From assembly GCA_035516175.1 (NCBI GenBank), contig DATJAO010000060.1, positions 32,779 through 96,778 on the forward strand: a stretch of DNA of 64,000 nt, written 5' to 3'. The notes below the pieces were generated by a model. It saw only the letters and a list, made by a program, of their open reading frames with translations. It searched no databases and was not told the origin of the DNA. A program made the translations under genes and the position numbers. Position 1 is the first letter of the stretch. Each line of letters opens with the position of its first letter. This DNA is from Nitrospirota bacterium. GTDB taxonomy: Bacteria; Nitrospirota; UBA9217. Below, piece by piece: positions 9,599 to 57,577 of the stretch.

Positions 9599-10507
9599 TC
9601 AAATATCCTCAAAATGCGTGAGGCTCTTGAACTCCCGGTACCTGCTCACAATCTCTTGATAATCCAGGCTGCGGAGCCGATCGAGGCTGAATGCCTCGAC
9701 GTTGAGGGACGCCATGACGCTGCCGAAGATAACGGCCTTCCTCATGCTACCCTCGGTAAAGTTCATGGTGCTGGCCAGATATCCTATGAAACCGCCTGCG
9801 AACGTATCGCCAGCACCTGTGGGATCGAACACCGATTCGAGCGGGTAGGCCGGTGCGTTGAACACGCTGTGGCCATTGAACATAAGCGCGCCGTAGCTTC
9901 CCTGTTTGACCACGACCGTCTTCGGTCCCATGGCCTGTACGCTCTTCGCTGCTTTAACCAGACTCGCCTCTCCGGCAAGCTGCCTGATTTCTGCTTCGTT
10001 AATTGTGAGCAGGTCCACTTCTTTGAGCAAGCGCTTGAGCGCTTCGGGCTTGCTCGAAATCCAGTAATTCATCGTATCGCAAGCAACGAGTTTCGGCCTC
10101 TCGACCTGCCTTAACACTTCGAGCTGGATCTCAGGGTCCACATTCGCGAGGAACACGACATCGGAGTTTTTATAATCGCCGACGATGTTCGGCTTGAAGG
10201 TCGCAAGGACGTTCAGATGAGTGGCCAGCGTGTGTGCCTCATTCAGGTCATACCCGTACTCGCCTTTCCATCGGAAGGTTTCTCCCTTCTGAACCTCTAT
10301 GCCTCGAGTGTCGATGTTTTTGCTCTTGAGAAATTGTATGTGCTCCTTAGGGAAGTCCTCGCCTATAACGGCTACGAGCCGGACATCGGCAAAATAACTG
10401 GCAGAGGTGGAAAAATAGGTTGCTGAACCGCCGAGGGCATTCTCAACATTTCCGAAGGGGGTCTTGACCGAATCAAGCGCGACCGTACCTACAACGAGCA
10501 AACTCAC
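9599..10507 (-). CDS. PfkB-family carbohydrate/nucleoside kinase
   Basis: Ribokinase-fold N-terminus (LLVVGTVALDSV) and the DPTGAGDTFAGGF anion-hole motif. Confidence 0.85.
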   Translation of the reverse strand: MSLLVVGTVALDSVKTPFGNVENALGGSATYFSTSASYFADVRLVAVIGEDFPKEHIQFLKSKNIDTRGIEVQKGETFRWKGEYGYDLNEAHTLATHLNVLATFKPNIVGDYKNSDVVFLANVDPEIQLEVLRQVERPKLVACDTMNYWISSKPEALKRLLKEVDLLTINEAEIRQLAGEASLVKAAKSVQAMGPKTVVVKQGSYGALMFNGHSVFNAPAYPLESVFDPTGAGDTFAGGFIGYLASTMNFTEGSMRKAVIFGSVMASLNVEAFSLDRLRSLDYQEIVSRYREFKSLTHFEDI

Positions 10508-15876: not shown

Positions 15877-17211
15877 TCAATAACTCAACTTTGCCTTTCC
15901 CAGGTTTGCAACCACCACGATCACCAAGCTGTCGGGATGAAGATACTTCTGCGCTACCCGTTTGATATCTTCGCTGGTCACAGCGTTTATCATCGCAGAG
16001 TACTTCTGAGGATAATCGAGACCGAGGTTATAGATCTCGATAGACGTCAGCATCCCGGCAATCTTCGCGTATGTGTCCACCTTCAATGGGAAACTTCCCG
16101 TTAGGTATGCCTTGGCATCGGCAAGTTCCTTGTCGGATACAGGCTCAGCCTGTATCCTCCGGATTTCCTTCAGCGTCTCGGCAATCACTTCGTTCGCTGA
16201 CTCATTCTTCGTCTTGATGCTGACCGAGAATGCTCCCGGTTCCTTCTGCGCGGAAAATACGCTGTGCACGTCATATGCCAGCCCTTTGTTATCGCGAATA
16301 TTATCCATAAGCCGGGAAGAAAATCCACCCCCGCCGAGTATGTAGTTCATGATCATCACGGCGTAGTAGTCGGGGTTTTCCCTGCTGATGCCGATATTGC
16401 CCATCTCGATATTCGCCTGGGTAATGTTCTTGTCGATCTTTTGTACTACGGTTTTCTCGATTGCCGTCGGCGGAATGGAGGCAGGAAGGGGCTGATCGCT
16501 CCGCTTCCATCCCTTGAAGTATTCCTGGAGAAGAGCAATTATCTCTTTTTCGTTCACGTCCCCTACCACGGCAACGATAGTGCTTTTTGGACTGTAGCGT
16601 ACTGAATAGAAATTTAAGATGTCCTGCCGCGTGAGTTTTGGCAAATAGGCTGCCACATCGTCGCTCGTCCTCCCATACGCATGTCTGCCGTATACCGCTT
16701 TCTTGAATGCCTCACCGGCAACGATGCCTGGTTCTTCTTTCTGCCGCTGGATCTGGGCAAGAATTTCCTTGACCTTGCGGTCGATCTCTTTCTGGTCGAA
16801 AACGGGATTCATGAGGACATCGGAGAGCAGGTCAAGGCCCGTCCGTATGTCCTTCCTGAGAACCCGCAGGCTTGCCGAGGCGAAGTCGTTTCCCCCGGAT
16901 ACGGAGAGCGACCCGCCGATGAAGTCGATCTCGCTGTTGATCCTGCCGGCCGGCCTTTTTGACGTCCCCTGCATGAGCAGCGACGCAGTGATCGATGCAA
17001 GGCCGGGCTTGTCCTCGGGTTCCGCTGTGCTCCCTGCCTTGATCGCCATGTTCACCGTGACCATAGGAATGTCATGCTTTTCTGAGAGTAACAGGACCAT
17101 GCCGTTGTCGAGAGGGATGCGCTTGCCGATCAGCTCGGCGGCGGATGTTTTTTGGGAGAATTGACAAACCACCGTTAATATAACAAGAAGTATGAACCTT
17201 TTAAGCCTCAT
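15877..17211 (-). CDS. M16-family peptidase, non-catalytic (beta-like) subunit
   Basis: M16 fold, but the HxxEH position reads ASLLMQG. Signal peptide MRLKRFILLVILTVV.... Start taken at ATG 17211 with GAGG upstream. Immediately downstream of the active M16 gene. Confidence 0.8.
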   Translation of the reverse strand: MRLKRFILLVILTVVCQFSQKTSAAELIGKRIPLDNGMVLLLSEKHDIPMVTVNMAIKAGSTAEPEDKPGLASITASLLMQGTSKRPAGRINSEIDFIGGSLSVSGGNDFASASLRVLRKDIRTGLDLLSDVLMNPVFDQKEIDRKVKEILAQIQRQKEEPGIVAGEAFKKAVYGRHAYGRTSDDVAAYLPKLTRQDILNFYSVRYSPKSTIVAVVGDVNEKEIIALLQEYFKGWKRSDQPLPASIPPTAIEKTVVQKIDKNITQANIEMGNIGISRENPDYYAVMIMNYILGGGGFSSRLMDNIRDNKGLAYDVHSVFSAQKEPGAFSVSIKTKNESANEVIAETLKEIRRIQAEPVSDKELADAKAYLTGSFPLKVDTYAKIAGMLTSIEIYNLGLDYPQKYSAMINAVTSEDIKRVAQKYLHPDSLVIVVVANLGKAKLSY

Positions 17212-17249
17212 TTTGTCGCCTCGCGTTTTCATTGTAAAATTTGCAATGC

Positions 17250-18569
17250 TCAATTCTTTGTTGGCACCAGTATCCCTACCGTCCTATTGTCCTCTGAGAA
17301 ATAATCTTTTGCCACACGCTGAATGTCTTCCTTAGTGACCGCATGGATGTTCTCCAGGTATTTCTCAAGCAGTTTCCTGTTCGCGACGCTCTCATACTCA
17401 CCGAGAAGCATGGCCTGGTAGAATACGGAATCCTGCCCCATGATGAATCCCGCTTCAATCTGGTTCTTTGCCTTCTGGAGCTCTTCGTCGGCAACCGGCG
17501 TTGTCTTAAGCTTTTCGATCTCGGTATAGAGCGCCTTCTCCACCTCCTCTGTAGTCTTACCGGGCATCACACCGGCATAGACGTAGAACAGATTCGGATC
17601 GTTTGAGATATTATCGTAATCGCCTCCGGCGTAGATAGCGAGCTGTTTTTCGTATACCAGCGACTTGTACAGGCGGGAACTCTTGCCCGAGGAGAGAATG
17701 CCTTGCAGGACCTCGAGGGCATAAGAGTCCTTGTCCTTGAGATCAGGCGTATGGTATCCGGCAAAAACAGCCGGAAGCTCTGCCTGTTTCTTAACGATGA
17801 TCCTGCGTTCACCCAGCTGTTTGGGCTCGACAGCAGCGACCCTTGGTACATCTGGTCCGCGCGGAATGGGGCCGAAATACTTTTCTATTTGCGGAAGGAG
17901 CGTCTTCGTATCGAAATCACCAGCCACAACGATGGTGGCATTGTTTGGTGCGTAGTAGGTGTGATAGTGATTATAGAGATCGTCGCGGGTAATGTTATTG
18001 ATGTCCGCCATCCAGCCGATCACCGGCCATTCATAGGGATGGGCAATGAAAGCCGCTGCCGTCATCTCTTCCACCATAGTCGATGTCGGGTCATCATCCG
18101 TTCTCATGCGGCGCTCTTCCTTAACCACCTCCCGTTCGGAGATGAACTCCTTCGGATCAATGAGCAAGTTCTGCATGCGGTCGGACTCGAGATCGAGCGC
18201 GATGCCGATACGGTCTGCGGCAAAGTTCTCGAAGTAGGCGGTATAGTCCTTGCCGGTGAATGCGTTGTCATCTCCTCCGTTCCGCATCACAGTCTGGGAA
18301 AAGGTCTTGGGCCCATACTTTTTCGTTCCCTTGAACATCATGTGTTCAAGCATGTGCGAGATGCCGGTCGTCCCGAGCTTTTCGTTCCGTGATCCGACCT
18401 TGTACCAGATCTGAAACGTTATCACCGGCGCCTTATGCTCTTCTTTGAGCAACACCTTGAGCCCGTTGGGCAGAACTTTTTCGGTAACGTTCATGTCCTG
18501 CCCCAAGGCAGACGTTACAACGAATACAGCATACAGGAACAGCAGTATTACTGATTTTACATATTTCAT
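17250..18569 (-). CDS. M16-family zinc peptidase, catalytic subunit
   Basis: HMLEHMMFKG (HxxEH) motif and signal peptide MKYVKSVILLFLYAVFVVTSALG. Start moved to ATG 18569 because the longer ORF would overlap dut. Confidence 0.85.
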   Translation of the reverse strand: MKYVKSVILLFLYAVFVVTSALGQDMNVTEKVLPNGLKVLLKEEHKAPVITFQIWYKVGSRNEKLGTTGISHMLEHMMFKGTKKYGPKTFSQTVMRNGGDDNAFTGKDYTAYFENFAADRIGIALDLESDRMQNLLIDPKEFISEREVVKEERRMRTDDDPTSTMVEEMTAAAFIAHPYEWPVIGWMADINNITRDDLYNHYHTYYAPNNATIVVAGDFDTKTLLPQIEKYFGPIPRGPDVPRVAAVEPKQLGERRIIVKKQAELPAVFAGYHTPDLKDKDSYALEVLQGILSSGKSSRLYKSLVYEKQLAIYAGGDYDNISNDPNLFYVYAGVMPGKTTEEVEKALYTEIEKLKTTPVADEELQKAKNQIEAGFIMGQDSVFYQAMLLGEYESVANRKLLEKYLENIHAVTKEDIQRVAKDYFSEDNRTVGILVPTKN

Positions 18570-18609
18570 TATCGATTCACCAACCTTCATTTTGGACTTT
18601 GAATTTGCC

Positions 18610-19065
18610 TTATCTCGCTCCTGTGTGTCCGAACCCTCCCTCCCCCCTCGCGGTCTCGGACAGCACATCCACCCTCATGAGCTTAGCCTTCTCAATCTTT
18701 GCGAAAATAATCTGGGCAATGCGGTCGCCACGGTGAATGATGAACGGCTTAGCACTGAAATTGAAAAGGATGACACCGATCTCGCCGCGGTAATCGGCGT
18801 CGATGGTGCCAGGCGCGTTCAGCATACCAATGCCGTGCTTGAGCGCGAGACCGCTCCGGGGCCGCACCTGACCTTCATATCCTTCGGGAATAGCAATCGC
18901 AATACCTGTCGGGACGAGTTTCCACATTCCCGCCTCGATGACCGTCTCTCCAGCGACAGCTGCGTACAGGTCAACGCCGGCAGAGTGTTCTGTCTGGTAG
19001 TGCGGGATGGGGAGTCCTTCGGAATTTTTAAGCTGTGTTATGTGAACAACGAGATGGCTGGGCAT
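18610..19065 (-). CDS. dut: dUTP diphosphatase
   Basis: dUTPase motifs [44 protein letters not shown]. Confidence 0.92.
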
Positions 19066-19149
19066 ATTTTTTTGACGACAGCATTAGCATAGAGCATTGT
19101 GTTGTCATCCCATTCGCTCCATAAATCTACGAGCGCTGCACTTTGACGA

Positions 19150-20406
19150 TTATATTTCCAAAACCGAATCCGGCACATCAGCCCTGCTCAGCGGGCCGAG
19201 GATCGCGAGCGACAGATTGTCCCGTGTAAATAGTTGCTGGGCGAGCCGCTGCACCTGCTCTGCGGTCACTTTTTCGACGCCCCTAATGATATCATCGATC
19301 GAGATATATTTGCCAAAATAGATCTCCTGTCTCGCCAGCCTGCTCATGTGGCTGTTGCTGCTCTCGAGGGAAAGGACAAGGTTCCCTTTGATCTGGTTCT
19401 TTACCCGCATCTCTTCCGCCGGCGTTATGCCCTCGTCCTTGATCTTCTTGAGCTCCCTGGTCACGAGCCGCAGCACCTCAAGCGTGTTCGTCGGATCGGT
19501 TCCGGCATACACCGTCAGCAGCCCCGTATCGCGGTACGAGGTCACATAAGAATAGATGGAATAAGCGAGTGCGTTCTGTTCGCGCACCTCCTGAAACAGT
19601 CGAGAGCTCATGCTGTTTCCAAGCACGGTGTTGAGCGCGGAGATCACATAGCGGTCATCGTGCATATAATTCATTCCCCGGCACCCGATACAGACCTGCA
19701 CCTGCTCAAGCTGTTTCTTCCTCACCGCCACGGCATGGCTGAAAGCAGGAGTCGCCTCTTTCTTGGGAATGCCTGCCCGCGATAGCCTTCCGAAGCTCTT
19801 ATCCAGAAGCTCGATCAGTCGGGCGTGTTCGAAATTGCCGGCAACGGATATCACGATCTCCTTAGGGCTGTAATAATGCTCGATATAGGAGATGATATCC
19901 TGGTGCTTGAGCGCTTTGATGGTCTCTTTTGTACCGAGGATGGGGCGGCCTAACGGATTGTCGGGCCAGACCGTGCTCGTGAAAAACTCGTGGATATAGT
20001 CATCGGGCGTGTCTTCCACTCCCTTAATCTCCTCAAGGATTACCTTGCGTTCCTTTTCCATTTCAATGGGGTCGAACTTGGAGCCAAGGAGAATGTCCGA
20101 CAGGATATCGACGGCCACCGGAAGGTGCTCGTCCACGACCTTGGCATAATAGGTGGTCGTTTCCTGCGAGGTGAAGGCATTCATCTCACCGCCAAGAGAG
20201 TCCATTTCGATCGCAATATCCTTGGCGGTCCTCTTCTCCGTTCCCTTGAAGAACAGATGCTCGATGAAGTGTGATATCCCGCCTATCTCCTCCGGTTCAT
20301 GGCGAGATCCCACCTTTACCCACACGCCTATGGAGACGGACCGCGATTTCGGCAGGGTTTCGGACACGACCCGTATCCCGTTGGAAAGGGTGTCTTTTCT
20401 GTACAT
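19150..20406 (-). CDS. M16-family zinc peptidase (cytoplasmic processing-peptidase type)
   Basis: GISHFIEHLFFKGT (HxxEH), no signal peptide, 418 aa. Confidence 0.88.
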   Translation of the reverse strand: MYRKDTLSNGIRVVSETLPKSRSVSIGVWVKVGSRHEPEEIGGISHFIEHLFFKGTEKRTAKDIAIEMDSLGGEMNAFTSQETTTYYAKVVDEHLPVAVDILSDILLGSKFDPIEMEKERKVILEEIKGVEDTPDDYIHEFFTSTVWPDNPLGRPILGTKETIKALKHQDIISYIEHYYSPKEIVISVAGNFEHARLIELLDKSFGRLSRAGIPKKEATPAFSHAVAVRKKQLEQVQVCIGCRGMNYMHDDRYVISALNTVLGNSMSSRLFQEVREQNALAYSIYSYVTSYRDTGLLTVYAGTDPTNTLEVLRLVTRELKKIKDEGITPAEEMRVKNQIKGNLVLSLESSNSHMSRLARQEIYFGKYISIDDIIRGVEKVTAEQVQRLAQQLFTRDNLSLAILGPLSRADVPDSVLEI

Positions 20407-22524
20407 TTATTTTTCTTTCTGGATCTGGTTGCCTTGTCCGTGCTGCGCAGCGCGCTCCTGGACGATCTTCTGCGCCAGGTGGCTCGGAACGTCTTCATAG
20501 CCGTAGAACTCCATGGTATACATGCCCCTTCCGCTCGTGAGCGAATTGAGCGTCGGTGCGTAGGAGAGCATTTCGGACATGGGCACAAGGGCCTTGATCG
20601 TCTGGCCATTCGCCTGGGGAACCACGCCCTGCACCTTGCCGCGGCGCGAGTTCAGGTCGCCGATCACGGCCCCGAGCGTATCATCCGGCGAAACCACTTC
20701 CACGCTCATGATCGGTTCGAGCAGTACCGGCCTCGCAGCTTCAACGGCCTTTTTGAATCCCATGGACGCAGCAACCTTGAATGCCATTTCCGATGAGTCT
20801 ACGGTGTGATAGGACCCGTCATAGAGTGTGACACGGAGATCCACCATGGGATACCCGGCAAGAGAACCTTCATGCATGGCCTCAACTACCCCTTTTTCAA
20901 CGGCGGGAATGTATTGACGCGGGATCACGCCGCCAACGATCTTGTCTACGAACTCGAACCCGCTGCCGCGCGGTAGGGGCTCGAGCTCGATCCATGCATC
21001 CCCGTATTGGCCATGGCCTCCGCTCTGCTTCTTATACTTGCCCTGGGCATTCGCCTTGGCCCTGATCGTTTCTTTGTACGGGACCTTCGGCGTCTTCATC
21101 TTTACGTCGACGCCGAACTTCCGCTTGAGCTTCTCGAGCGTTACCTCGATATGCACCTGTCCCATGCCCGACAAGATCATTTCCTTGGTCTGATCATCAA
21201 AGGCGAAGCGGAGCGTCGGGTCTTCGTCGAGCAGTTTGTGAATACCGATGCTCACCTTGTCCTCGTCACCCCGTGATTTCGGTTCTATGGCAAAGGAGAG
21301 CACCGGGTCAATGAACTTTGCAAAATCAAGCACAATCGCCTGCGTCTCTGGGCACAGCGTATCACCGGTGAGGGTCTCCTTGAGTTTGGCCACAGCGCCG
21401 ATCTGGCCCGCTGAAAGTGCCTGCGCGGTGACTTGTTTCTTGCCTTCGATGTAGAACAATGAGCCGATTTTTTCTTTTGTCTGCTTATTCGAGTTATAGA
21501 CGGCAGAATCTGCCTTCAGCGTTCCAGAGAAAACCCGCACCAAGGAAAGTTTACCGGCAAAAGGGTCGATGACGGTCTTGAATACGAGTGCGGCAAGCGG
21601 TTCCTCGGGGGTTGGCTTTCGCACAATCTCTTTTCCGGCCTTCGGATCTTTCCCCTTGATCGCCACGATACCGGCCCGTTCGACCGGGGAAGGGAGGCAC
21701 ATGATCACGGCATCCATGAGTTGTTGAATCCCCATATTTTTGACCGGTGAGCCGCACAGAACAGGCAAGAGTCCGCCGCCGAGCGTTCCATGCTTGAGCC
21801 CGGCTATGAGATCTTCCTGCGAGAGGTCTCCTTTGTCCAGATACTTTTCGAGCAGGCTGTCTTCGGTCTCCGCAATCTGCTCCACAAGCTTCTTGCGGTA
21901 ATTAGCTGCATCCTGCTTCATGTTGTCGGGGATCTCTTTTTCCTCAACCTTGCCGCTATTGTCCTTCGCAAAATAGAGGGCTTTCATCTTGACGAGATCG
22001 ATGACGCCCGCAAAGTTTTCTTCGAGGCCGATAGGAAGCTGGAGTATGAGGGCGCCTTTGCAGAAGTACTTCTCCATATCGCCTACGGCACGAAAAAAGT
22101 CGGCACGCTCCTTGTCAAGCTTGCTCACGAAGGCGATACGTGGTATCTCGTAGTCGCAGGCGAACTTGTAAATCTTTTCGGTCTCGGCCTTGACACCGGA
22201 CAGGGCGGATACGATGACTATAGCACCGTCAACAGCTCGGAGGGTCCCCTTCGTTTCTTCGAGGAAGTTGATATAACCAGGGGTGTCGATTATATTGATC
22301 CGGACTCCCTTCCAGTCCACGAATCCGAGCGCTGCGGTGATCGTGATCTTTCGAGTGATCTCCTCGGCCTCGTGCATGAAGACCGATGTGTTGTCGTCCA
22401 CGCTTCCCGGGACGTCTACTGCACCTCCGACGAAGAGCATGGCGTCGGCGAGCGATGTCTTGCCCGCGGCGCCGTGTGACAGGATGGCAATGTTGCGGAT
22501 TTCCCTGACATCAGCATTTTTCAT
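20407..22524 (-). CDS. elongation factor G paralogue
   Basis: Translational GTPase domain (NIAILSHGAAGKTSL, DTPGY), then EF-G domains II-V. The G1 motif deviates from the canonical AHIDAGKTT. Confidence 0.88.
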   Translation of the reverse strand: MKNADVREIRNIAILSHGAAGKTSLADAMLFVGGAVDVPGSVDDNTSVFMHEAEEITRKITITAALGFVDWKGVRINIIDTPGYINFLEETKGTLRAVDGAIVIVSALSGVKAETEKIYKFACDYEIPRIAFVSKLDKERADFFRAVGDMEKYFCKGALILQLPIGLEENFAGVIDLVKMKALYFAKDNSGKVEEKEIPDNMKQDAANYRKKLVEQIAETEDSLLEKYLDKGDLSQEDLIAGLKHGTLGGGLLPVLCGSPVKNMGIQQLMDAVIMCLPSPVERAGIVAIKGKDPKAGKEIVRKPTPEEPLAALVFKTVIDPFAGKLSLVRVFSGTLKADSAVYNSNKQTKEKIGSLFYIEGKKQVTAQALSAGQIGAVAKLKETLTGDTLCPETQAIVLDFAKFIDPVLSFAIEPKSRGDEDKVSIGIHKLLDEDPTLRFAFDDQTKEMILSGMGQVHIEVTLEKLKRKFGVDVKMKTPKVPYKETIRAKANAQGKYKKQSGGHGQYGDAWIELEPLPRGSGFEFVDKIVGGVIPRQYIPAVEKGVVEAMHEGSLAGYPMVDLRVTLYDGSYHTVDSSEMAFKVAASMGFKKAVEAARPVLLEPIMSVEVVSPDDTLGAVIGDLNSRRGKVQGVVPQANGQTIKALVPMSEMLSYAPTLNSLTSGRGMYTMEFYGYEDVPSHLAQKIVQERAAQHGQGNQIQKEK

Positions 22525-45926: not shown

Positions 45927-46778
45927 TTACTTGTTCCCTATCAGCACGATATCCCCATTTTCTCTGTTGAGGACCCTGGCCACGACCGGGCATTTGACCT
46001 TAAAAAGGAAGAATGTCCGGGCATCTTTCTCTTGCACAAGCGTTTCGAAATTGGCTTGTCCCTTGCTTATGATCAGATCAGCCGACCGGTATGCGTCTAT
46101 GAACTGCTGAGAGCATGCCTCAAGCAGCGTACCGATGCCATCATTGCCATTATCGATGACCACCGCACACTCCGCGAGCCCTGCGGCAGTGGCATCGTCA
46201 CGCGTGGCATCGTTGATCACCGGAGAACCCTTGACCACAGCGGTCACGTCCTTTCCCCTGTCGCGCAGCGTCTCGATCAGGACACGGTCGAACACGATCT
46301 CTCCCGCGTTATCGCAAAGAAAGAGGATTCGCCGAGCGCCGGCTGCGGCCTGTGCAAAATTATGGTAGTCGCTTGAGGACAAGGGCAGGAGAAACGATTC
46401 TGACAGGGAGCGGTCCAAATCAAAGGTCTCGTAAATTCCGAAGTCGATCACATTCCCGGCTATAGCGATGCGCACGCCGCCTTCGAGACGGTCGGGAGTT
46501 TCAGCAGCCATCCTCCTGAGTCGCGTCAGCCGTTCGAGGGCAATGCGATTATAGGAGTCCTTCACCTGTTTATACGGATCTACACCGGTCTCCTCGCGCA
46601 GGATCCGATGGATAAGCGTGGTGGTCCGCGCAGGAACCTCATCTAAAGAAGCGCGCTCGATGATCTCCTCGGCCTTGCGGAGAATGCTGCGTCCGCGGTC
46701 GCCGTTCACTCCTGCGTAATTCAACGTACGCGTTATCTGCCCAAAAAAGCATGGCAGGCACTCAAGCTCGGTCTTCAC
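45927..46778 (-). CDS. DUF89 / ARMT1-like damage-control phosphatase family protein
   Basis: ECLPCFFGQ N-terminus, CDNAGEIVFD and SKGQANFE motifs. Start proposed at GTG 46778, which overlaps the purE stop (GTGA). Confidence 0.7.
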   Translation of the reverse strand: MKTELECLPCFFGQITRTLNYAGVNGDRGRSILRKAEEIIERASLDEVPARTTTLIHRILREETGVDPYKQVKDSYNRIALERLTRLRRMAAETPDRLEGGVRIAIAGNVIDFGIYETFDLDRSLSESFLLPLSSSDYHNFAQAAAGARRILFLCDNAGEIVFDRVLIETLRDRGKDVTAVVKGSPVINDATRDDATAAGLAECAVVIDNGNDGIGTLLEACSQQFIDAYRSADLIISKGQANFETLVQEKDARTFFLFKVKCPVVARVLNRENGDIVLIGNK

Positions 46779-47398
46779 AATGCCGGACCCTGTGCCGGGG
46801 TGGAGCCGCCTGGTTTCTTCTTCCACCGCCTCCGTCTGGATTTCTTCTTTGCCGAGGGGACCTCGGTAGCAACCATCTCCCGGGGAGGAGCCACTGCCGC
46901 AGAAATCGCAACAAGCCGCTTGGCCTTTTCCTCCACGTCACGCTCCATCTCTACCTTGAAGACCTTAAGGCGATTGGCTACCTTTACGTCTCCTACGGCG
47001 ATGATCTGCGCCGCAAAAACTCCGGCGTTCTTTGCACCGGCCTTGCCGAGCGACATAGTTGCAACGGGCACACCGCCGGGCATCTGCGCCACGGACAGCA
47101 GCGCATCAATCCCCTTGAGCGGCGAAGAATCGATCGGCACGCCGATCACCGGCAGCGTTGTCTGTGATGCGACCACACCGGCTAGGTGCGCGGCCCATCC
47201 CGCGCCGGCGATGATCACCTTGAGGCCGCGCCGCTCTGCACTCTGGCTATATTCGTGCACCTTTTTCGGCGTACGGTGCGCCGATGCGATCGTCATCTCG
47301 TATTCAACGCCGAACTCCTGGAGCATCGCAGCTGCTTCCTGCATTACCGGCAGGTCAGAATCGCTTCCCATCAATATTCCTACGGCTGGTTTCCCCAT
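46775..47398 (-). CDS. purE: 5-(carboxyamino)imidazole ribonucleotide mutase with unusual basic C-terminal extension
   Basis: VGILMGSDSDLPVM, ASAHRTP, AGGAAHLAG-like (AGWAAHLAG) and GVPVATM motifs. 207 aa, versus about 165 typical. Confidence 0.9.
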   Translation of the reverse strand: MGKPAVGILMGSDSDLPVMQEAAAMLQEFGVEYEMTIASAHRTPKKVHEYSQSAERRGLKVIIAGAGWAAHLAGVVASQTTLPVIGVPIDSSPLKGIDALLSVAQMPGGVPVATMSLGKAGAKNAGVFAAQIIAVGDVKVANRLKVFKVEMERDVEEKAKRLVAISAAVAPPREMVATEVPSAKKKSRRRRWKKKPGGSTPAQGPAL

Positions 47399-48921: not shown

Positions 48922-49755
48922 CTACTCTCTGCCCCGTGCTCTCTGCTGTCTGTCCAATTCTGCATTCATGCTTCCCGTCCGGTATCCCTCGAGGTCCAGG
49001 CAGACATAGGTATATCCGAGTCCCTTCAGTGCCGACGTGACCTTCTCAGCCGTTTCATTTGAAAAGAGCTGCCCAAAAGCCTCACGGTCAATCTCTATTC
49101 TCGCTATATTGCCGTGATGACGCACACGCACCTGCCGTAACCCGAGAACGTGCAGATGATCCTCGGCGTTCTTTACGGTCTCAATAATGTCTGGGGTGAT
49201 CCTCGTGCCGTACGGAATACGAGAGGAAAAACAGGCAAGCGACGGTTTGTCCCACACGGGGAGGTTTAAAAATCGCGCGAGTTCGCGGACATCGGATTTG
49301 GACAGTCCTGTTTCCACAAGCGGGCTCCTGACAGAAAACTCCTCAGCGGCCTTTCTGCCAGGGCGGTAGTCATCAAGATCGTCCGTGTTCGAACCGTCGA
49401 GTATGCAGGAAATACCTTCGGTCTCGGCAATCTTCTTCAGTTTTCCGTAAAGCTCTTTTTTGCAGAAATAGCAACGTTCCGGGGAATTCCGCACAAACTC
49501 TTCTGACGCAAGTTCCTGTGTACGGAGTATCCGGTGCGTCACACCCAGTGTGCGGGCAAACTCCTTCGCTGCTTCGAGTTCGCCGGGCGGATAGGTCTCG
49601 GAAACTGCAGTAATAGCTATCAAGCGAGGGCCCATGACCTCAGCCGTGGCCCTGAGCAAAAGAGAACTGTCCACGCCTCCGGAATAGGCGAGCACGGCAC
49701 ATTTCATACCCCGGAGCAGCGTTCTGAGACGGTCCCATTTTTGTTCTATCACCAT
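48922..49755 (-). CDS. larE: PP-loop ATP pyrophosphatase, LarE-like (TIGR00268 type)
   Basis: PP-loop AYSGGVDSS and conserved Cys context PSLACFSSRIPYG. Confidence 0.75.
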   Translation of the reverse strand: MVIEQKWDRLRTLLRGMKCAVLAYSGGVDSSLLLRATAEVMGPRLIAITAVSETYPPGELEAAKEFARTLGVTHRILRTQELASEEFVRNSPERCYFCKKELYGKLKKIAETEGISCILDGSNTDDLDDYRPGRKAAEEFSVRSPLVETGLSKSDVRELARFLNLPVWDKPSLACFSSRIPYGTRITPDIIETVKNAEDHLHVLGLRQVRVRHHGNIARIEIDREAFGQLFSNETAEKVTSALKGLGYTYVCLDLEGYRTGSMNAELDRQQRARGRE

Positions 49756-49844: not shown

Positions 49845-50642
49845 CTATTTCCGCCCCTCCGGGACATTGAAGCCCAGTTTAGCGGACAGCGCGTTGCCGG
49901 ACTCGAGAAGCAGGGAGATGATCCCGCCTTTTTCAAGCCGTTCATCAGTGAGCCGGCTTGCGGGAGCCACGATCCCTACAGCGGCGATCACGCTTTTCGA
50001 GAAGTCTTTTGCCGGCACGGCAATGCTGCGCACCTCCGGGTCGCATTCCTCGTTCTCAAGTGCATATCCCCTCTCTGCGGTTTTCTTCAACTCCGCTGTC
50101 AGGGCATCACGCGTCTTTATGCTCTTGTCAGTAAGCCCCGGCAGGCTGATTTCAGGATATAGTCGTTCAATCTCGACAGGTAATAACGTGGCTAGCTGTG
50201 CCTTACCCACGGCGGTGCAGTGGGCAGGAAGCATGGCGCCGATGCGCGAGACGGCTCGCACGGTCCTGTTCGTCTCCACGCTGTCCATGTAGATCACTTT
50301 GTTTCCCCGCAGGACCGCCACCACCGCAGTCTCTCCCGATGAAGCCATAAGGCTTTCAAGGATCGGGCGCGCCTGCCGACGGCACTCGCGCTGCTCGATG
50401 AAGATCGATCCGATCTGGAGCGTCTTGGGGCCAAGCCGGTAGTTCTCCGTCGCCTTGTTCTGCTCGATATAACCGCGATGTTCAAGCGTGGCGAGCAGCC
50501 TGAACACGTTGTTTTTGTGCAGCCCCAGCCTCTTCGAAAGCTCGGTCACGCCGAGTTCGTCTTCGGTCTTGGTGAACGATTCCAGGATGTCGAGCGCGTG
50601 GGAAACCGATTGGATCGTGTAGTTGACTTTTTCCCTCTTCAT
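49845..50642 (-). CDS. IclR-family transcriptional regulator
   Basis: wHTH (LGVTELSKRLGLHKNNVFRLLATLEHRGYIEQ) plus an IclR effector domain. GTG start with an AGGAGAG RBS. Confidence 0.85.
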   Translation of the reverse strand: MKREKVNYTIQSVSHALDILESFTKTEDELGVTELSKRLGLHKNNVFRLLATLEHRGYIEQNKATENYRLGPKTLQIGSIFIEQRECRRQARPILESLMASSGETAVVAVLRGNKVIYMDSVETNRTVRAVSRIGAMLPAHCTAVGKAQLATLLPVEIERLYPEISLPGLTDKSIKTRDALTAELKKTAERGYALENEECDPEVRSIAVPAKDFSKSVIAAVGIVAPASRLTDERLEKGGIISLLLESGNALSAKLGFNVPEGRK

Positions 50643-50727
50643 ACAATGACTCTCCTACCTGCAGCATTTCTTTGCTCCGTTAGGAAACGCTGTGGACTCT
50701 TGAGAGAGCTTTCATCTCTAGTGGAGT

Positions 50728-51150
50728 TTACTTGAACGCGCCGGGTTGATCACCTTTTTTCACCGGGTAACCCTTCATTAACCAGTCAGGGATGCCTGCC
50801 TGATAAATCATGAGGTGGGTATACCCCATATCATGGGCCGCACCTGCGGCCATGCGACTCAGGCCTCAGCCGGTTCCTCTGCAATAAAAGATTATCGGTG
50901 TCGTCTTATTCTTGGGGAGGCGCGCTGCCTCAAAATTCATCCGCTCCGCCGGAATATTAATCGCACCTGAAATGTGACCTGCCTGATACTCATCGGGCAG
51001 TCTTGTATCAATGAGCACGAAAGAGCGCTTCCCCGCCATCCACGCTTTCACGTCTTCAGCATTTATGATCGGAAACTGCGCTATGGCAGGCGAGGAGGAA
51101 AGGAGGATGAATCCGAATAAAAACCATAAGAATACCCTTTTTCTGAGCAT
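50728..51150 (-). CDS. periplasmic single-domain rhodanese with in-frame UGA (candidate selenocysteine, motif CRGTG-U)
   Basis: The track ORF 50866..51150 covers the signal peptide plus two-thirds of a rhodanese domain. It stops at TGA 50866-50868, inside the active-site loop. The same frame then encodes the missing rhodanese C-terminus (GLSRMAAGAAHDMGYTHLMIYQAGIPDWLMKGYPV...) up to TAA 50728-50730. Confidence 0.6.
50833..50868 (-). promoter_or_regulatory. UGA followed by a SECIS-like hairpin
   Basis: UGA, 12 nt, then AUGGCCGC-AGGU-GCGGC(C)CAU. That is 6 G-C pairs, one bulged C and 2 more pairs. The apical loop contains GGU. Confidence 0.5.
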
Positions 51151-51186
51151 AATAAAGTCCTTCCCTCACTTTAAAACAGTTGTTTA

Positions 51187-51215
51187 ATATTATGTCTCTG
51201 GGAGATTTTTGTCAA
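51187..51215 (-). promoter_or_regulatory. sigma70-like promoter of the rhodanese gene
   Basis: On the minus strand: TTGACA (51215-51210), 17-nt spacer, TAATAT (51192-51187). It lies about 35 nt upstream of the ATG, which has a GAGGGAAGGA RBS. Confidence 0.5.
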
Positions 51216-51620
51216 GAAAAAACAAGCTTCCAACATCATGACGAGAAAGCCTCCTTAGATACCTGCATTCACTAACGGCTACAGATGATAACTTACATCA
51301 TCGTATGATCAATAAGATACACCGTCAGCAGAAGGCGGCAACTTTCTTCTCATGGGAACGAATTGAGGAAACAAAAAAAGATGAGGAGATGAAAGAATGA
51401 ATGATGCCGCTGCGGCAATCTTGATGTACACAAGGGGAACAATGTTTGTGAGATAATTACCAACTCCGACGGCAAAAAGATGATTCGTCGCGCTCGCTGT
51501 ACACACGCCCCGCCATTACTGTCTGCCAGCGAAACCTCGTGGCAAAAGCCACCGCGAGAAGCTAGGTTTTCTCTACCATCTCGGCCGGAACAATAAATGT
51601 CAACGACGTCAGAAACGCCG

Positions 51621-57447: not shown

Positions 57448-57469
57448 GAGAAGGGTTATATGAAGCTGT

Positions 57470-57565
57470 GAATGTTCGCCTTCCCTACGCCGGCACTACC
57501 CGGATCAGGTTCTAAGGGTCGCCCTCGAAAAAAGAGGACTCTCAGCCGATCGGCTCCCCCAGCTC
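57470..57565 (-). promoter_or_regulatory. TPP (THI-box) riboswitch
   Basis: The minus strand reads GGGGGAGCCGAUCGGCUGAGAGUCC...GCGACCCUUAGAACCUGAUCCGGGUAGUGCCGGCGUAGGGAAGGCG. This contains the conserved CUGAGA, ACCCUU.GAACCUGAUC.GG.UA.UGCC.GCGUAGGGAA elements. Confidence 0.85.
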
Positions 57566-57577
57566 TCTATGATCTCC

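Follow-up and report, generated by a model that had tools for sequence, protein, structure and literature searches.

The window analysed here is a 64-kb stretch of Nitrospirota DNA. On its minus strand lies a short rhodanese gene with an in-frame TGA, followed by a gene for a transcriptional regulator. The features of the locus are listed below.

51187..51215, minus strand: sigma-70-like promoter, TTGACA-17 nt-TAATAT, with 10/12 consensus positions
51172..51186, minus strand: near-palindromic element TAAACAACTGTTTTA, a putative operator, between the -10 box and the ribosome-binding site, conserved in upstream alignments
51158..51167, minus strand: ribosome-binding site GAGGGAAGGA, 7 nt ahead of the ATG, as read from the sequence
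50728..51150, minus strand: complete coding sequence of a 140-residue pre-protein, continuing through UGA codon 95 to a TAA at 50728-50730, as supported by frame, PF00581, orthologues and coding selection
51079..51150, minus strand: predicted Sec-type signal peptide, residues 1-24 (MLRKRVFLWFLFGFILLSSSPAIA / QF)
50881..50883, minus strand: TGC codon for Cys90, the canonical rhodanese catalytic Cys at the end of the central beta-strand, invariant in orthologues and in the wider family
50866..50868, minus strand: in-frame TGA, codon 95, proposed to encode selenocysteine (Sec), sixth residue of the loop C-R-G-T-G-U
50833..50853, minus strand: bSECIS-like hairpin, core stem 50851-50846/50841-50836, apical loop AGGU at 50845-50842, identified by folding, published constraints and orthologues
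49845..50642, minus strand: IclR-family transcriptional regulator (HTH_IclR and IclR_C), partner gene 85 nt downstream

A sequence-only reading of the window had described a 94-codon open reading frame at 50866..51150 on the minus strand and placed the TGA that ends it in the active-site loop of a rhodanese. Both descriptions hold. The C-terminal end is ...TTPIIFYCRGTG-TGA, and the loop reads FYCRGTG-TGA. The same frame is indeed open for 45 further codons (GLSRMAAGAAHDMGYTHLMIYQAGIPDWLMKGYPVKKGDQPGAFK) up to the TAA, and the proposal that these codons supply the missing C-terminal part of the fold is confirmed by a Pfam match that spans the stop. In the read-through protein, residues 31-125 align with PF00581 (profile positions 2-101 of 102, E = 1e-17), and the score of 64.9 bits, against a gathering threshold of 22.2, is that of a whole-domain rhodanese. 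Therefore, the rhodanese domain continues across the TGA.

Cys90 is aligned with the active-site Cys of solved rhodaneses (6mxv). In the AlphaFold model of a Cys-containing orthologue (P0002; mean pLDDT 86.7), a strand (residues 85-88) leads into the loop C89...C94-S95, which is followed by a helix (residues 96-106). The catalytic Cys is thus the first loop residue after the central strand and before the helix, as in rhodaneses, and structure comparison indicates that the fold of the model agrees with that of solved single-domain rhodaneses. The signal peptide was judged by eye from a basic n-region, a hydrophobic core and an A-x-A site. This site recurs among the orthologues in the form A[ML]AQ[FY]P, and the matching segment of the P0002 model is unstructured and of low confidence. 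Cleavage after residue 24 would leave a mature protein of ~116 residues, predicted from these features to be exported to the periplasm.

Among Nitrospirota orthologues, the TGA column is occupied by TGA in 41 distinct sequences and by a Cys codon (TGT/TGC) in 17; TAA and TAG do not occur. Alignment of full-length orthologues, a check proposed beforehand, reveals CRGxGC, with Cys exactly where the TGA stands, as expected of a Cys/Sec pair. In the wider family, Cys89 and Cys94 are both invariant, and distant relatives without TGA strictly have Cys at this column. One apparent Trp variant (P0016) was rejected, its codon being TGA. About 55 homologues in public protein sets end at 93-94 residues, exactly at the TGA column.

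The codons downstream of the TGA behave as coding sequence. Across 40 sequences, pairwise differences in the downstream third are 0.27, 0.24, and 0.51 at the first, second, and third codon positions, respectively, and the synonymous share of codon differences is 41% in frame versus 10-11% in the shifted frames. Judged by this pattern of substitution, the frame downstream of the TGA is under purifying (coding) selection. TGA is also the ordinary stop codon of 14 of the 40 other domain-verified genes in the window, and a reassigned genetic code is therefore rejected.

The hairpin downstream of the TGA

The sequence-only reading had proposed that the mRNA folds into AUGGCCGC-AGGU-GCGGC(C)CAU at 50853..50833. 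This segment, which begins 12 nt past the UGA and lies within the codons for M-A-A-G-A-A-H, folds as claimed, with the core GGCCGC/GCGGCC. The gap between the UGA and the loop is 20 nt. When counting starts at the U of the UGA, the G and U of the loop fall on nucleotides 26-27, again as claimed; those of E. coli fdhF fall on nucleotides 23-24, in a hairpin whose stem has a bulged U. As in fdhF-type SECIS elements and the consensus bSECIS model (PMC13188914), the hairpin lies within the coding sequence just after the UGA, and its small apical loop contains G and U.

The bSECIS model specifies a loop of 3-9 nt, a stem of 4-16 bp, G in the first two loop positions, a spacing of 16-37 nt, and a folding energy of at most -7.5 kcal/mol (PMC13188914). 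Under these constraints, implemented with bulges disallowed, the window hairpin passes with a 6-bp core, the loop AGGU, a spacing of 20 nt and a core energy of -11.7 kcal/mol. All 41 TGA forms pass, versus 4 of the 17 Cys forms (Fisher p = 7.5e-10), and TGA forms fold at a mean of -16.2 kcal/mol versus -9.9 kcal/mol for Cys forms (Mann-Whitney p = 2e-7); the orthologue sequences are phylogenetically related, so that the statistical tests here and in the next paragraph overstate independence. The spacing in TGA forms is always 19-22 nt.

In TGA forms, pair 18-33 occurs as GC (n = 16) and as CG (n = 12). The covariation score is 0.261, whereas shuffling gives 0.130 and none of 500 shuffles attains the observed value; no covariation was found in the hairpin of the Cys forms. 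The paired wobble columns 21/30 have entropies of 0.38/0.17 bits in TGA forms versus 1.06/1.42 bits in Cys forms. By this comparison of orthologues, the hairpin is maintained by selection in TGA forms only. The stem is encoded by Ala-Ala-Gly-Ala-Ala codons (GCN GCN GGN GCN GCN), which are prone to pairing anyway. Cys forms still make 70% of the pairs, indicating that the hairpin comes partly free with the protein sequence.

The significance of the hairpin lies in this orthologue comparison and not in the single sequence. Taken alone, the 61-nt fold is unremarkable against shuffles (z = -1.0), and 56 of the 2380 TGA triplets in the window (2.4%) are followed by a bSECIS-compliant hairpin. The TGA at 50866-50868 is the only one of the 56 within a credible split reading frame. 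A second selenoprotein gene in the window was considered and rejected, the four other SECIS-plus-ORF matches all being off-frame artefacts inside known genes. At gathering thresholds, Rfam reports only a TPP riboswitch and nothing on the hairpin. A permissive Rfam scan of 50600-51300 yields a single match, a chance one to a snoRNA (E = 0.33), and none to a SECIS family, which is weak evidence because no Rfam family reached any threshold here.

Upstream elements and the IclR gene

The promoter that the sequence-only reading had assigned to the gene was recovered at 51215..51187 on the minus strand. Its pattern has a single match in the 64 kb, versus 0.01 expected by chance. Sec and Cys orthologues alike have the -35 box and the spacing conserved in their upstream regions. 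AGGAG-like sequences occur in the orthologues at the position of the ribosome-binding site.

Between the two lies the putative operator. The exact motif TAAACANNTGTTTTA occurs once per locus in 50 loci, always just 5' of the rhodanese start, and nowhere else in those loci, with up to 20 kb scanned; the window has one exact copy of the TAAACAACTGTTTTA-type motif. Of the 69 orthologous loci, 63 have the IclR gene beside that for the rhodanese, with 81-97% identity among the matches listed. In these alignments and loci, the promoter, the TAAACAACTGTTTTA element and the IclR gene are conserved together. No minus-strand terminator-like site was found in the rhodanese-IclR intergenic stretch, and the two genes are probably co-transcribed. 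Transcription would start from the sigma-70-like promoter and would probably be controlled through TAAACAACTGTTTTA by the IclR regulator encoded downstream, the co-conserved candidate for binding this element.

Reading of the UGA

We consider it highly likely that 50728..51150 on the minus strand is one exported-rhodanese gene, in which UGA codon 95 is read as Sec by means of a bSECIS, the active-site loop contains Cys90 and Sec95, and regulation is linked to the IclR protein. The core of this reading, a real exported rhodanese selenoprotein gene with its UGA read as Sec, is very probable. The sequence-only reading had arrived at Sec and a 140-residue exported C-x4-U rhodanese, and it is supported by the Cys column, by 41 TGA and no TAA or TAG, by coding selection and by the hairpin. 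In the mechanism that we infer for the UGA, the hairpin GGCCGC-AGGU-GCGGCC would serve as a bacterial SECIS and recruit SelB and Sec-tRNA(Sec) to the ribosome stalled at the UGA. After Sec insertion, 45 more codons would be translated up to the TAA. UGA termination probably competes with Sec insertion, and some truncated product is therefore likely.

The capacity of the genome for Sec insertion is assumed. Neither the 64-kb window nor ~15 kb of extra contig (~80 kb in total) contains selA, selB, selC or selD: Pfam scans of 40 window ORFs detect no SelA, SelB or SelD, and contig extensions of ~10 kb and ~5 kb have no Sec-machinery genes. ARAGORN finds no tRNA, and hence no tRNA-Sec, in the window or in 23 related loci, which also lack selA, selB and selD. 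A tblastn search with the SelD protein from a locus of the tandem family described below (L171) finds nothing further in 1.6 Mb of DNA searched. A selC embedded in selB has been reported in Nitrospirae; the phylum is therefore known to include Sec users (PMC13188914).

The alternative that survives best, itself very unlikely, is that the UGA is read through without Sec. In that case a near-cognate or a suppressor tRNA would supply Trp, Cys, Gly or Arg at the UGA, and the only effect of the hairpin would be to slow the ribosome or hinder release factor 2. Downstream structures stimulate read-through in general, and the ~80 kb of contig DNA and the 23 related loci are without Sec machinery, as this alternative would allow. 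However, all non-TGA relatives, distant families included, strictly have Cys at the column, which is the hallmark of Cys/Sec exchange, and TAA or TAG is never seen there. The loop G and the spacing fit SelB-type bSECIS rules in 41/41 TGA forms. In addition, a related family has TGA in the same column adjoining a Sec-containing selD, and Sec users exist in the phylum.

Less probable still is that the TGA is a real stop, either in a pseudogene or in a gene with a functional 94-residue product, with the 41-codon ORF from the ATG at 50853 as a separate small gene in one variant. All public gene calls do stop at 93-94 residues, and gene callers also predict the separate 41-residue ORF. A 94-residue product, however, would lack the final third of the rhodanese fold, to which the helix that follows the active-site loop belongs, and the 45 downstream codons are kept in frame with synonymous-biased substitutions across 40 sequences. 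Against a separate small gene, the four codons from the TGA to the ATG are conserved as protein (xLSx), and most orthologues have no Met at its supposed start (e.g. TLSKAAAGSAA). Retention of the stop as TGA only, in 41 lineages, is unlike pseudogene decay.

An error of sequencing or assembly that turned TGT or TGC into TGA is extremely improbable. A single base separates TGA from a Cys codon and two long-read MAG loci (L013 and L024) have frameshifts in the rhodanese gene, but 41 distinct orthologous sequences have the TGA, it comes with hairpin-preserving codon choices absent from Cys forms, and different projects have yielded the identical product in four independent assemblies (two from ENA, one from JGI and one from Logan).

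Related rhodaneses and proposed function

Sec insertion remains the preferred reading, and it places the protein among rhodanese-related selenoproteins, which, as the sequence-only reading had stated, are already in the literature (PMC1088965, PMC1976440, PMC13188914). Five forms of rhodanese-domain selenoprotein have been catalogued. Form 1 (PF00581, motif UxxS, reference WP_010941598.1; Zhang & Gladyshev 2005) is tabulated in PMC13188914 and PMC9312934. The protein described here resembles form 1 in having a rhodanese domain and a single Sec. The UxxS motif fits the U-G-L-S of the window protein and the U-x-L-S that every orthologue has (U-[TGSK]-L-S); judged from this motif only, the Sec column may be shared with form 1, to which the TGA column of the Desulfobacterota tandem rhodaneses described below lends indirect support. 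ExtH, a Geobacter rhodanese-like lipoprotein, was considered as the identity of this known form and rejected as a different, 49-kDa protein.

Two other catalogued forms give the best NCBIfam matches. TsoB (form 5, NF045694, UxxxxU; Haft & Tolstoy 2025, cited in PMC13188914) is a rhodanese/DsbD fusion-like double selenoprotein. It is the best match, at 62 bits, over profile positions 42-160, which correspond to its rhodanese part, and the spacing of the two chalcogens is equal (UxxxxU versus CxxxxU here) when compared by motif. However, 62 bits is far below the cut-off of 805, and the protein here has no DsbD-like membrane domain, Cys and not Sec at the first position, one TGA and 140 residues. 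NF041203 (rhodanese_LYCAU, form 3, CxU) is the second-best match, with nearly the whole profile covered, and is likewise a small single-domain rhodanese selenoprotein with a catalytic Cys and a nearby Sec. It scores 44 bits, where the cut-off is 115, and Sec is at Cys+2 there but at Cys+5 here. No NCBIfam model claims the Nitrospirota rhodanese family.

Desulfobacterota tandem rhodaneses, ~35-37% identical to the Nitrospirota protein, read FYCNGxK-C/U-GKS. One clade of this family has its TGA in exactly the loop column seen here, followed by a hairpin after ~22 nt. They have two rhodanese domains in ~250 residues, whereas the Nitrospirota protein has one in 140, and the active-site loop is CNGxKU in the former and CRGxGU in the latter. 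In at least some tandem proteins (e.g. L022), a Cys lies behind a hydrophobic N-terminal segment, suggesting that they are lipoproteins, whereas the Nitrospirota protein has an A-x-A signal-peptidase site. At one tandem-family locus, the TGA-form rhodanese gene adjoins a SelD gene whose own frame also contains a TGA. The TGA evidence for this family rests on L170, L171 and 41 truncated homologues; a full-length tandem-rhodanese query finds only Cys forms among the top-ranked matches, and the hairpin of another member (L140) failed the strict no-bulge constraint test. Given the five catalogued forms and a tandem family with TGA in the same column, the gene would therefore be an unannotated addition to the known rhodanese selenoproteins.

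Proteins without Sec offer a further comparison. E. coli PspE (2jtq) is a small exported rhodanese domain with an active-site Cys, 33% identical over the aligned fold, but it has a single Cys and neither Sec nor a second Cys in the loop. The PspE models TIGR02981 and NF007627 score 39.9 and 39.7 bits against cut-offs of 126.3 and 102, respectively. Sud of Wolinella succinogenes, a periplasmic polysulfide-sulfur transferase, is also a small exported rhodanese with an active-site Cys and without Sec or a second loop Cys. Such periplasmic sulfane-sulfur carriers provide the best functional analogy.

In the loop C90-R-G-T-G-U95, Cys90 is the canonical persulfide-carrying nucleophile. Residue 95, five positions past Cys90, is placed at the loop end, just ahead of the N-terminus of the next helix, and in the proposed chemistry Sec95 would be a second, more reactive chalcogen partnering Cys90. 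It might bond with Cys90 as Cys-S-Se-Sec, or carry the sulfane sulfur or selenium that is being transferred. The protein would then be a redox-active periplasmic sulfur or selenium carrier or reductase, and not a plain one-cysteine sulfurtransferase; both this Cys-Sec chemistry and the substrate are what we infer for the protein. A wider proposal is offered tentatively and is more doubtful: a distinct class of exported C-x4-Sec rhodaneses, with Sec ancestral and repeatedly replaced by Cys, a Cys90/Sec95 selenenylsulfide switch turning what is otherwise a passive fold for carrying sulfur into a periplasmic sulfane sulfur or selenium reductase or carrier, and a dedicated IclR-type sensor acting on TAAACAnnTGTTTTA.

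All public sources sampled list the TGA-form orthologues as fragments of 93-94 residues, and one of these entries has Trp at the TGA. Recognition of the gene would correct annotation across a whole Nitrospirota clade and extend the catalogue of rhodanese selenoproteins. The family is a natural experiment, with 41 Sec versus 17 Cys forms and a SECIS visibly decaying in the Cys forms, and is useful for studying gain and loss of Sec codons and SECIS elements. A second chalcogen at catalytic Cys+5, Cys or Sec, is seen in several exported rhodanese families and points to a two-residue redox mechanism that is uncharacterised for the rhodanese fold. The conserved promoter element and the IclR partner offer a way of testing which signals the protein responds to. 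With a Sec rhodanese adjoining selD in the related tandem family, a role in selenium trafficking is conceivable, in which a selenoprotein would itself handle selenium.

A rhodanese gene interrupted by an in-frame UGA

The rhodanese gene (50728..51150, minus strand) begins as a 94-codon open reading frame, with an ATG at 51150 and the end ...TTPIIFYCRGTG-TGA, the TGA lying at 50868-50866. The sequence-only reading described the same frame as open for 45 codons past the TGA, up to a TAA at 50730-50728, and the stop as splitting a rhodanese fold; both descriptions match what we find. If the stop is read as Cys, the protein has 140 residues and matches PF00581 (Pfam Rhodanese) across the stop, over residues 31-125 and profile positions 2-101 of 102 (E = 1e-17); the stop thus interrupts the domain and does not mark its boundary.

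The read-through protein, used as a query, returns ~55 homologues of 93-94 residues, all ending in ...FYCRGxG, and a handful of full-length homologues (121-149 residues) with Cys at the TGA-aligned column, as CRGxGC. Aligning the orthologues, as had been proposed, places Cys at this column in the full-length ones and TGA in the others. The homologous protein P0016 (locus L169, 292-714) appears as a Trp variant in the public gene call because its source translated UGA as Trp; the DNA there is TGA, and the protein is full-length but wrong.

Scans of one-genome-per-species and metagenome collections give 69 orthologous loci, and those that are organism-named and genome-derived are all labelled Nitrospirota, Nitrospirae, Nitrospiraceae or Nitrospiria. 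The critical column is TGA in 41 distinct sequences and TGT or TGC in 17; neither TAA nor TAG occurs among them. The frame past the TGA is conserved in the orthologous DNA: mean pairwise differences per site are 0.27, 0.24, and 0.51 for first, second, and third codon positions, and the synonymous share of differing codons is 41% in frame versus 10-11% in the two shifted frames. In addition, the Met at which gene callers begin a 41-codon downstream ORF is missing in most orthologues. Therefore, the locus is neither a pseudogene, which the TGA-only stop column and the conserved downstream frame rule out, nor an upstream gene followed by a separate 41-codon gene, which in-frame conservation and the missing Met rule out.

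In two loci from metagenome-assembled genomes, L013 (~10001-10391) and L024 (~10001-10419), the rhodanese gene looks frameshifted in the tblastn frame. In L013 an intact Cys-form active-site motif and the C-terminus are found in another frame; in L024 the active-site motif is followed by one more frame shift. Judging by their isolate names (MFD…) and the great length of their contigs, both loci appear to come from long-read assemblies, and the frameshifts are likely assembly indel errors, not real pseudogenes.

An identical 94-residue product is present in four independent assemblies (two ENA, one JGI, and one Logan), hence the same TGA is present in all four. Genome-wide reassignment of UGA is ruled out, since TGA serves as a normal stop codon for 14 of the 40 domain-verified genes of the window, among them the adjacent RNase PH gene. 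We know of no bacterial explanation other than selenocysteine (Sec) insertion for the combination of site-specific UGA recoding, a SECIS-like hairpin, and an otherwise all-Cys column. The sequence-only reading took the UGA to encode Sec, and we judge it right on the Cys/TGA column, the coding selection downstream, and the hairpin selected in TGA forms: codon 95 is very probably decoded as Sec. On the same comparative grounds, the rhodanese gene is in all likelihood a genuine selenoprotein gene, mis-annotated everywhere, with a well-documented SECIS.

No tRNA-Sec, SelA, SelB, or SelD is found in the window, in ~15 kb more of the same 118-kb contig, or in 23 related loci. The tRNA-Sec gene selC can be embedded in selB in Nitrospirae (PMC13188914); the phylum therefore includes Sec users, a report that is no evidence on the source genome.

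Selection on the hairpin in UGA-containing forms

The proposed hairpin, AUGGCCGC-AGGU-GCGGC(C)CAU at 50853-50833 (minus strand), is indeed the local minimum-energy structure. Taken alone it is unexceptional (z = -1.0 versus shuffles), and its stem codons encode Ala-Ala-Gly-Ala-Ala, which partly pair by default. We coded the consensus bacterial SECIS model as a test of four constraints, taken as PMC13188914 quotes them. All 41 TGA forms satisfy them, with a UGA-to-loop spacing always of 19-22 nt and G-rich loops (for example AGGU, GGGU, GGGC, and CGGGUU), as against only 4 of the 17 Cys forms (Fisher p = 7.5e-10, optimistic because the sequences compared share ancestry). Of the TGA triplets in the window, only 56/2380 do so. 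The mean fold energy over 39 nt is -16.2 kcal/mol in TGA forms versus -9.9 kcal/mol in Cys forms.

On a fixed register, in which columns 16-23 pair with 28-35 and column 1 is the U of UGA, pairing reaches 85.6% in TGA forms. These forms score 0.261 for covariation versus 0.130 in shuffles, none of which (0/500) attains the observed value; pair 18-33, in particular, is G-C in 16 sequences and C-G in 12. On this register covariation is absent from Cys forms, most of which do not form pairs 18-33 and 21-30. Columns 21 and 30, which pair with each other, each correspond to the wobble base of an Ala codon. Their entropies are 0.38 and 0.17 bits in TGA forms versus 1.06 and 1.42 bits in Cys forms; adjacent wobble positions in TGA forms have 1.0-1.9 bits. 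Covariation and frozen wobble columns thus indicate that the hairpin is kept by selection on synonymous sites, and this selection acts only where the UGA must be decoded.

In a neighbour-joining tree, rough in that it uses 55 aligned residues without resampling support, TGA forms occupy all deep branches, and nested among them the Cys forms make up a single main clade plus two sequences on their own. As a lead, this suggests that Sec is ancestral in the group and gave way to Cys on more than one occasion, after which the hairpin decayed.

Promoter, operator-like element, and neighbouring genes

51186-51172, minus strand: near-palindrome TAAACAnnTGTTTTA of the rhodanese gene, after the -10 box and before the ribosome-binding site
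49845-50642, minus strand: IclR-family regulator, 85 nt downstream of the rhodanese gene
48922-49755 and 46775-47398, minus strand: LarE-type ATP-dependent sacrificial sulfur transferase and purE (weak LarB match)
57464-57570, minus strand: TPP riboswitch RF00059 (70.6 bits), upstream of the thiamine operon

The promoter-like TTGACA-17-TAATAT noted earlier is present at 51215-51187 (minus strand) and is the sole such match in the window. All orthologues have cTTGACAaa, a 17-nt spacer, a -10 box, the near-palindrome, and then AGGAG upstream. The window has one exact copy of the near-palindrome, as does each of 50 loci, invariably at the same place (e.g., L001 9966-9980 and L002 9965-9979), with no second exact copy in up to 20 kb per locus. 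The IclR regulator is found at 63 of the 69 orthologous loci, beside Sec and Cys forms alike. Its identity is 81-97% among the matches listed, above that of the rhodanese itself, and its best NCBIfam matches (BhcR and PcaR/PcaU) are all under their cut-offs. No terminator-like site lies in the 85-nt gap between the two genes. The near-palindrome is probably the operator of the co-conserved regulator, which may bind it. Taken together, the shared promoter, near-palindrome, and IclR neighbour indicate that the two genes form a conserved unit, which is probably autoregulated.

Downstream, the LarE-type gene (TIGR00268, 316 bits versus a cut-off of 150) adjoins the IclR gene and is followed by purD and purE; a LarE-like gene is near the rhodanese gene in 39/69 loci. 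Upstream are RNase PH and the thiamine operon (thiS-thiG-thiE-thiC, then an M23 peptidase and thiD), which runs toward the rhodanese locus. No functional link of the rhodanese to the LarE-type, purD, purE, RNase PH, or thiamine genes is seen.

Between RNase PH and the rhodanese promoter, a 65-codon ORF (51309-51506, minus strand) gives a weak partial match to GDT1 (cation/proton antiporter). A 38-residue stretch of it is kept at 68-87% in nine orthologous loci; the ORF may be a conserved small gene or the remnant of a gene. Elsewhere, an EF-G-like GTPase gene (20407-22524) is directly followed by a run of three genes (15877-20406, minus strand) for M16-family (insulinase-like) peptidases of 458, 472, and 418 residues.

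The active-site loop and known rhodanese selenoproteins

The N-terminus, MLRKRVFLWFLFGFILLSSSPAIA followed by QF, has the signal-peptide features named in the sequence-only reading, and these are conserved in orthologues. Because the N-terminus starts with basic residues and contains a hydrophobic core and an A-x-A site, the protein is predicted to be exported. As modelled by AlphaFold, the Cys orthologue P0002 (mean pLDDT 86.7; 90-96 across the domain) resembles ordinary single-domain rhodaneses (PspE, GlpE, YgaP, and TSTD1), with a strand (85-88, LIFY), the loop C89-R-G-L-G-C94-S95, and a helix (96-106). By this model, Cys90 of the window protein corresponds to the canonical catalytic cysteine, and Sec95 to the sixth loop residue, at the helix N-terminus. 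Across a wider family, which takes in tandem-domain proteins from Desulfuromonadales and their relatives as well as C-x4-C-x2-S rhodaneses of other phyla, these two positions hold Cys, or Cys/Sec, without exception. This invariance suggests a putative two-chalcogen mechanism, in which a Cys-S-Se-Sec bond would form or a sulfane atom would bridge the two residues. The pattern YC-x4-C-x2-S is common to loci L025, L027, L037, L044, L045, and L047, from an alphaproteobacterium, Aminicenantes, Desulfovibrionales, and others. Therefore, the two-cysteine loop defines a rhodanese subtype that is widespread and not confined to Nitrospirota.

The tandem rhodaneses are 35-37% identical to the window protein and include a clade of forms ending exactly at the TGA column (41 clusters, ~101 residues). 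TGA is confirmed in loci L140, L170, and L171, so the Nitrospirota protein is not alone in having Sec at this place in the loop. On the metagenomic contig L171 (8001-9842), the tandem-rhodanese gene has TGA at the same loop column, a hairpin 22 nt downstream of it, and selD directly after. This selD carries an in-frame TGA in its TCG-U-AAKIGP motif (…LSRTCG[TGA]AAKIGPADL…), so two adjacent selenoprotein genes have been called as fragments. An adjoining selD is not seen in L170.

Rhodanese-related sulfurtransferases have been counted among selenoproteins since 2005 (PMC1088965, PMC1976440), and a 2026 review tabulates five rhodanese-domain forms (PMC13188914), confirming the earlier statement that such proteins are catalogued. 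Their motifs are UxxS (form 1), UxxG (form 2), CxU (form 3, NF041203), UxxG (form 4), and UxxxxU (form 5, TsoB, NF045694). No NCBIfam model reaches its cut-off on the window protein: the rhodanese part of TsoB scores 62 bits (cut-off 805) and the LYCAU model 44 bits (cut-off 115). Likened by motif alone, UxxS of form 1 fits the window's U-x-L-S, there preceded by C-x4, and UxxxxU of TsoB has the same spacing as the window's C-x4-U. By the reviewers' rule of same domain and same Sec site, the window protein would probably be classed with form 1. Rhodanese selenoproteins are thus already known as a kind, to which the window gene adds an unannotated one with a conserved regulatory partner.
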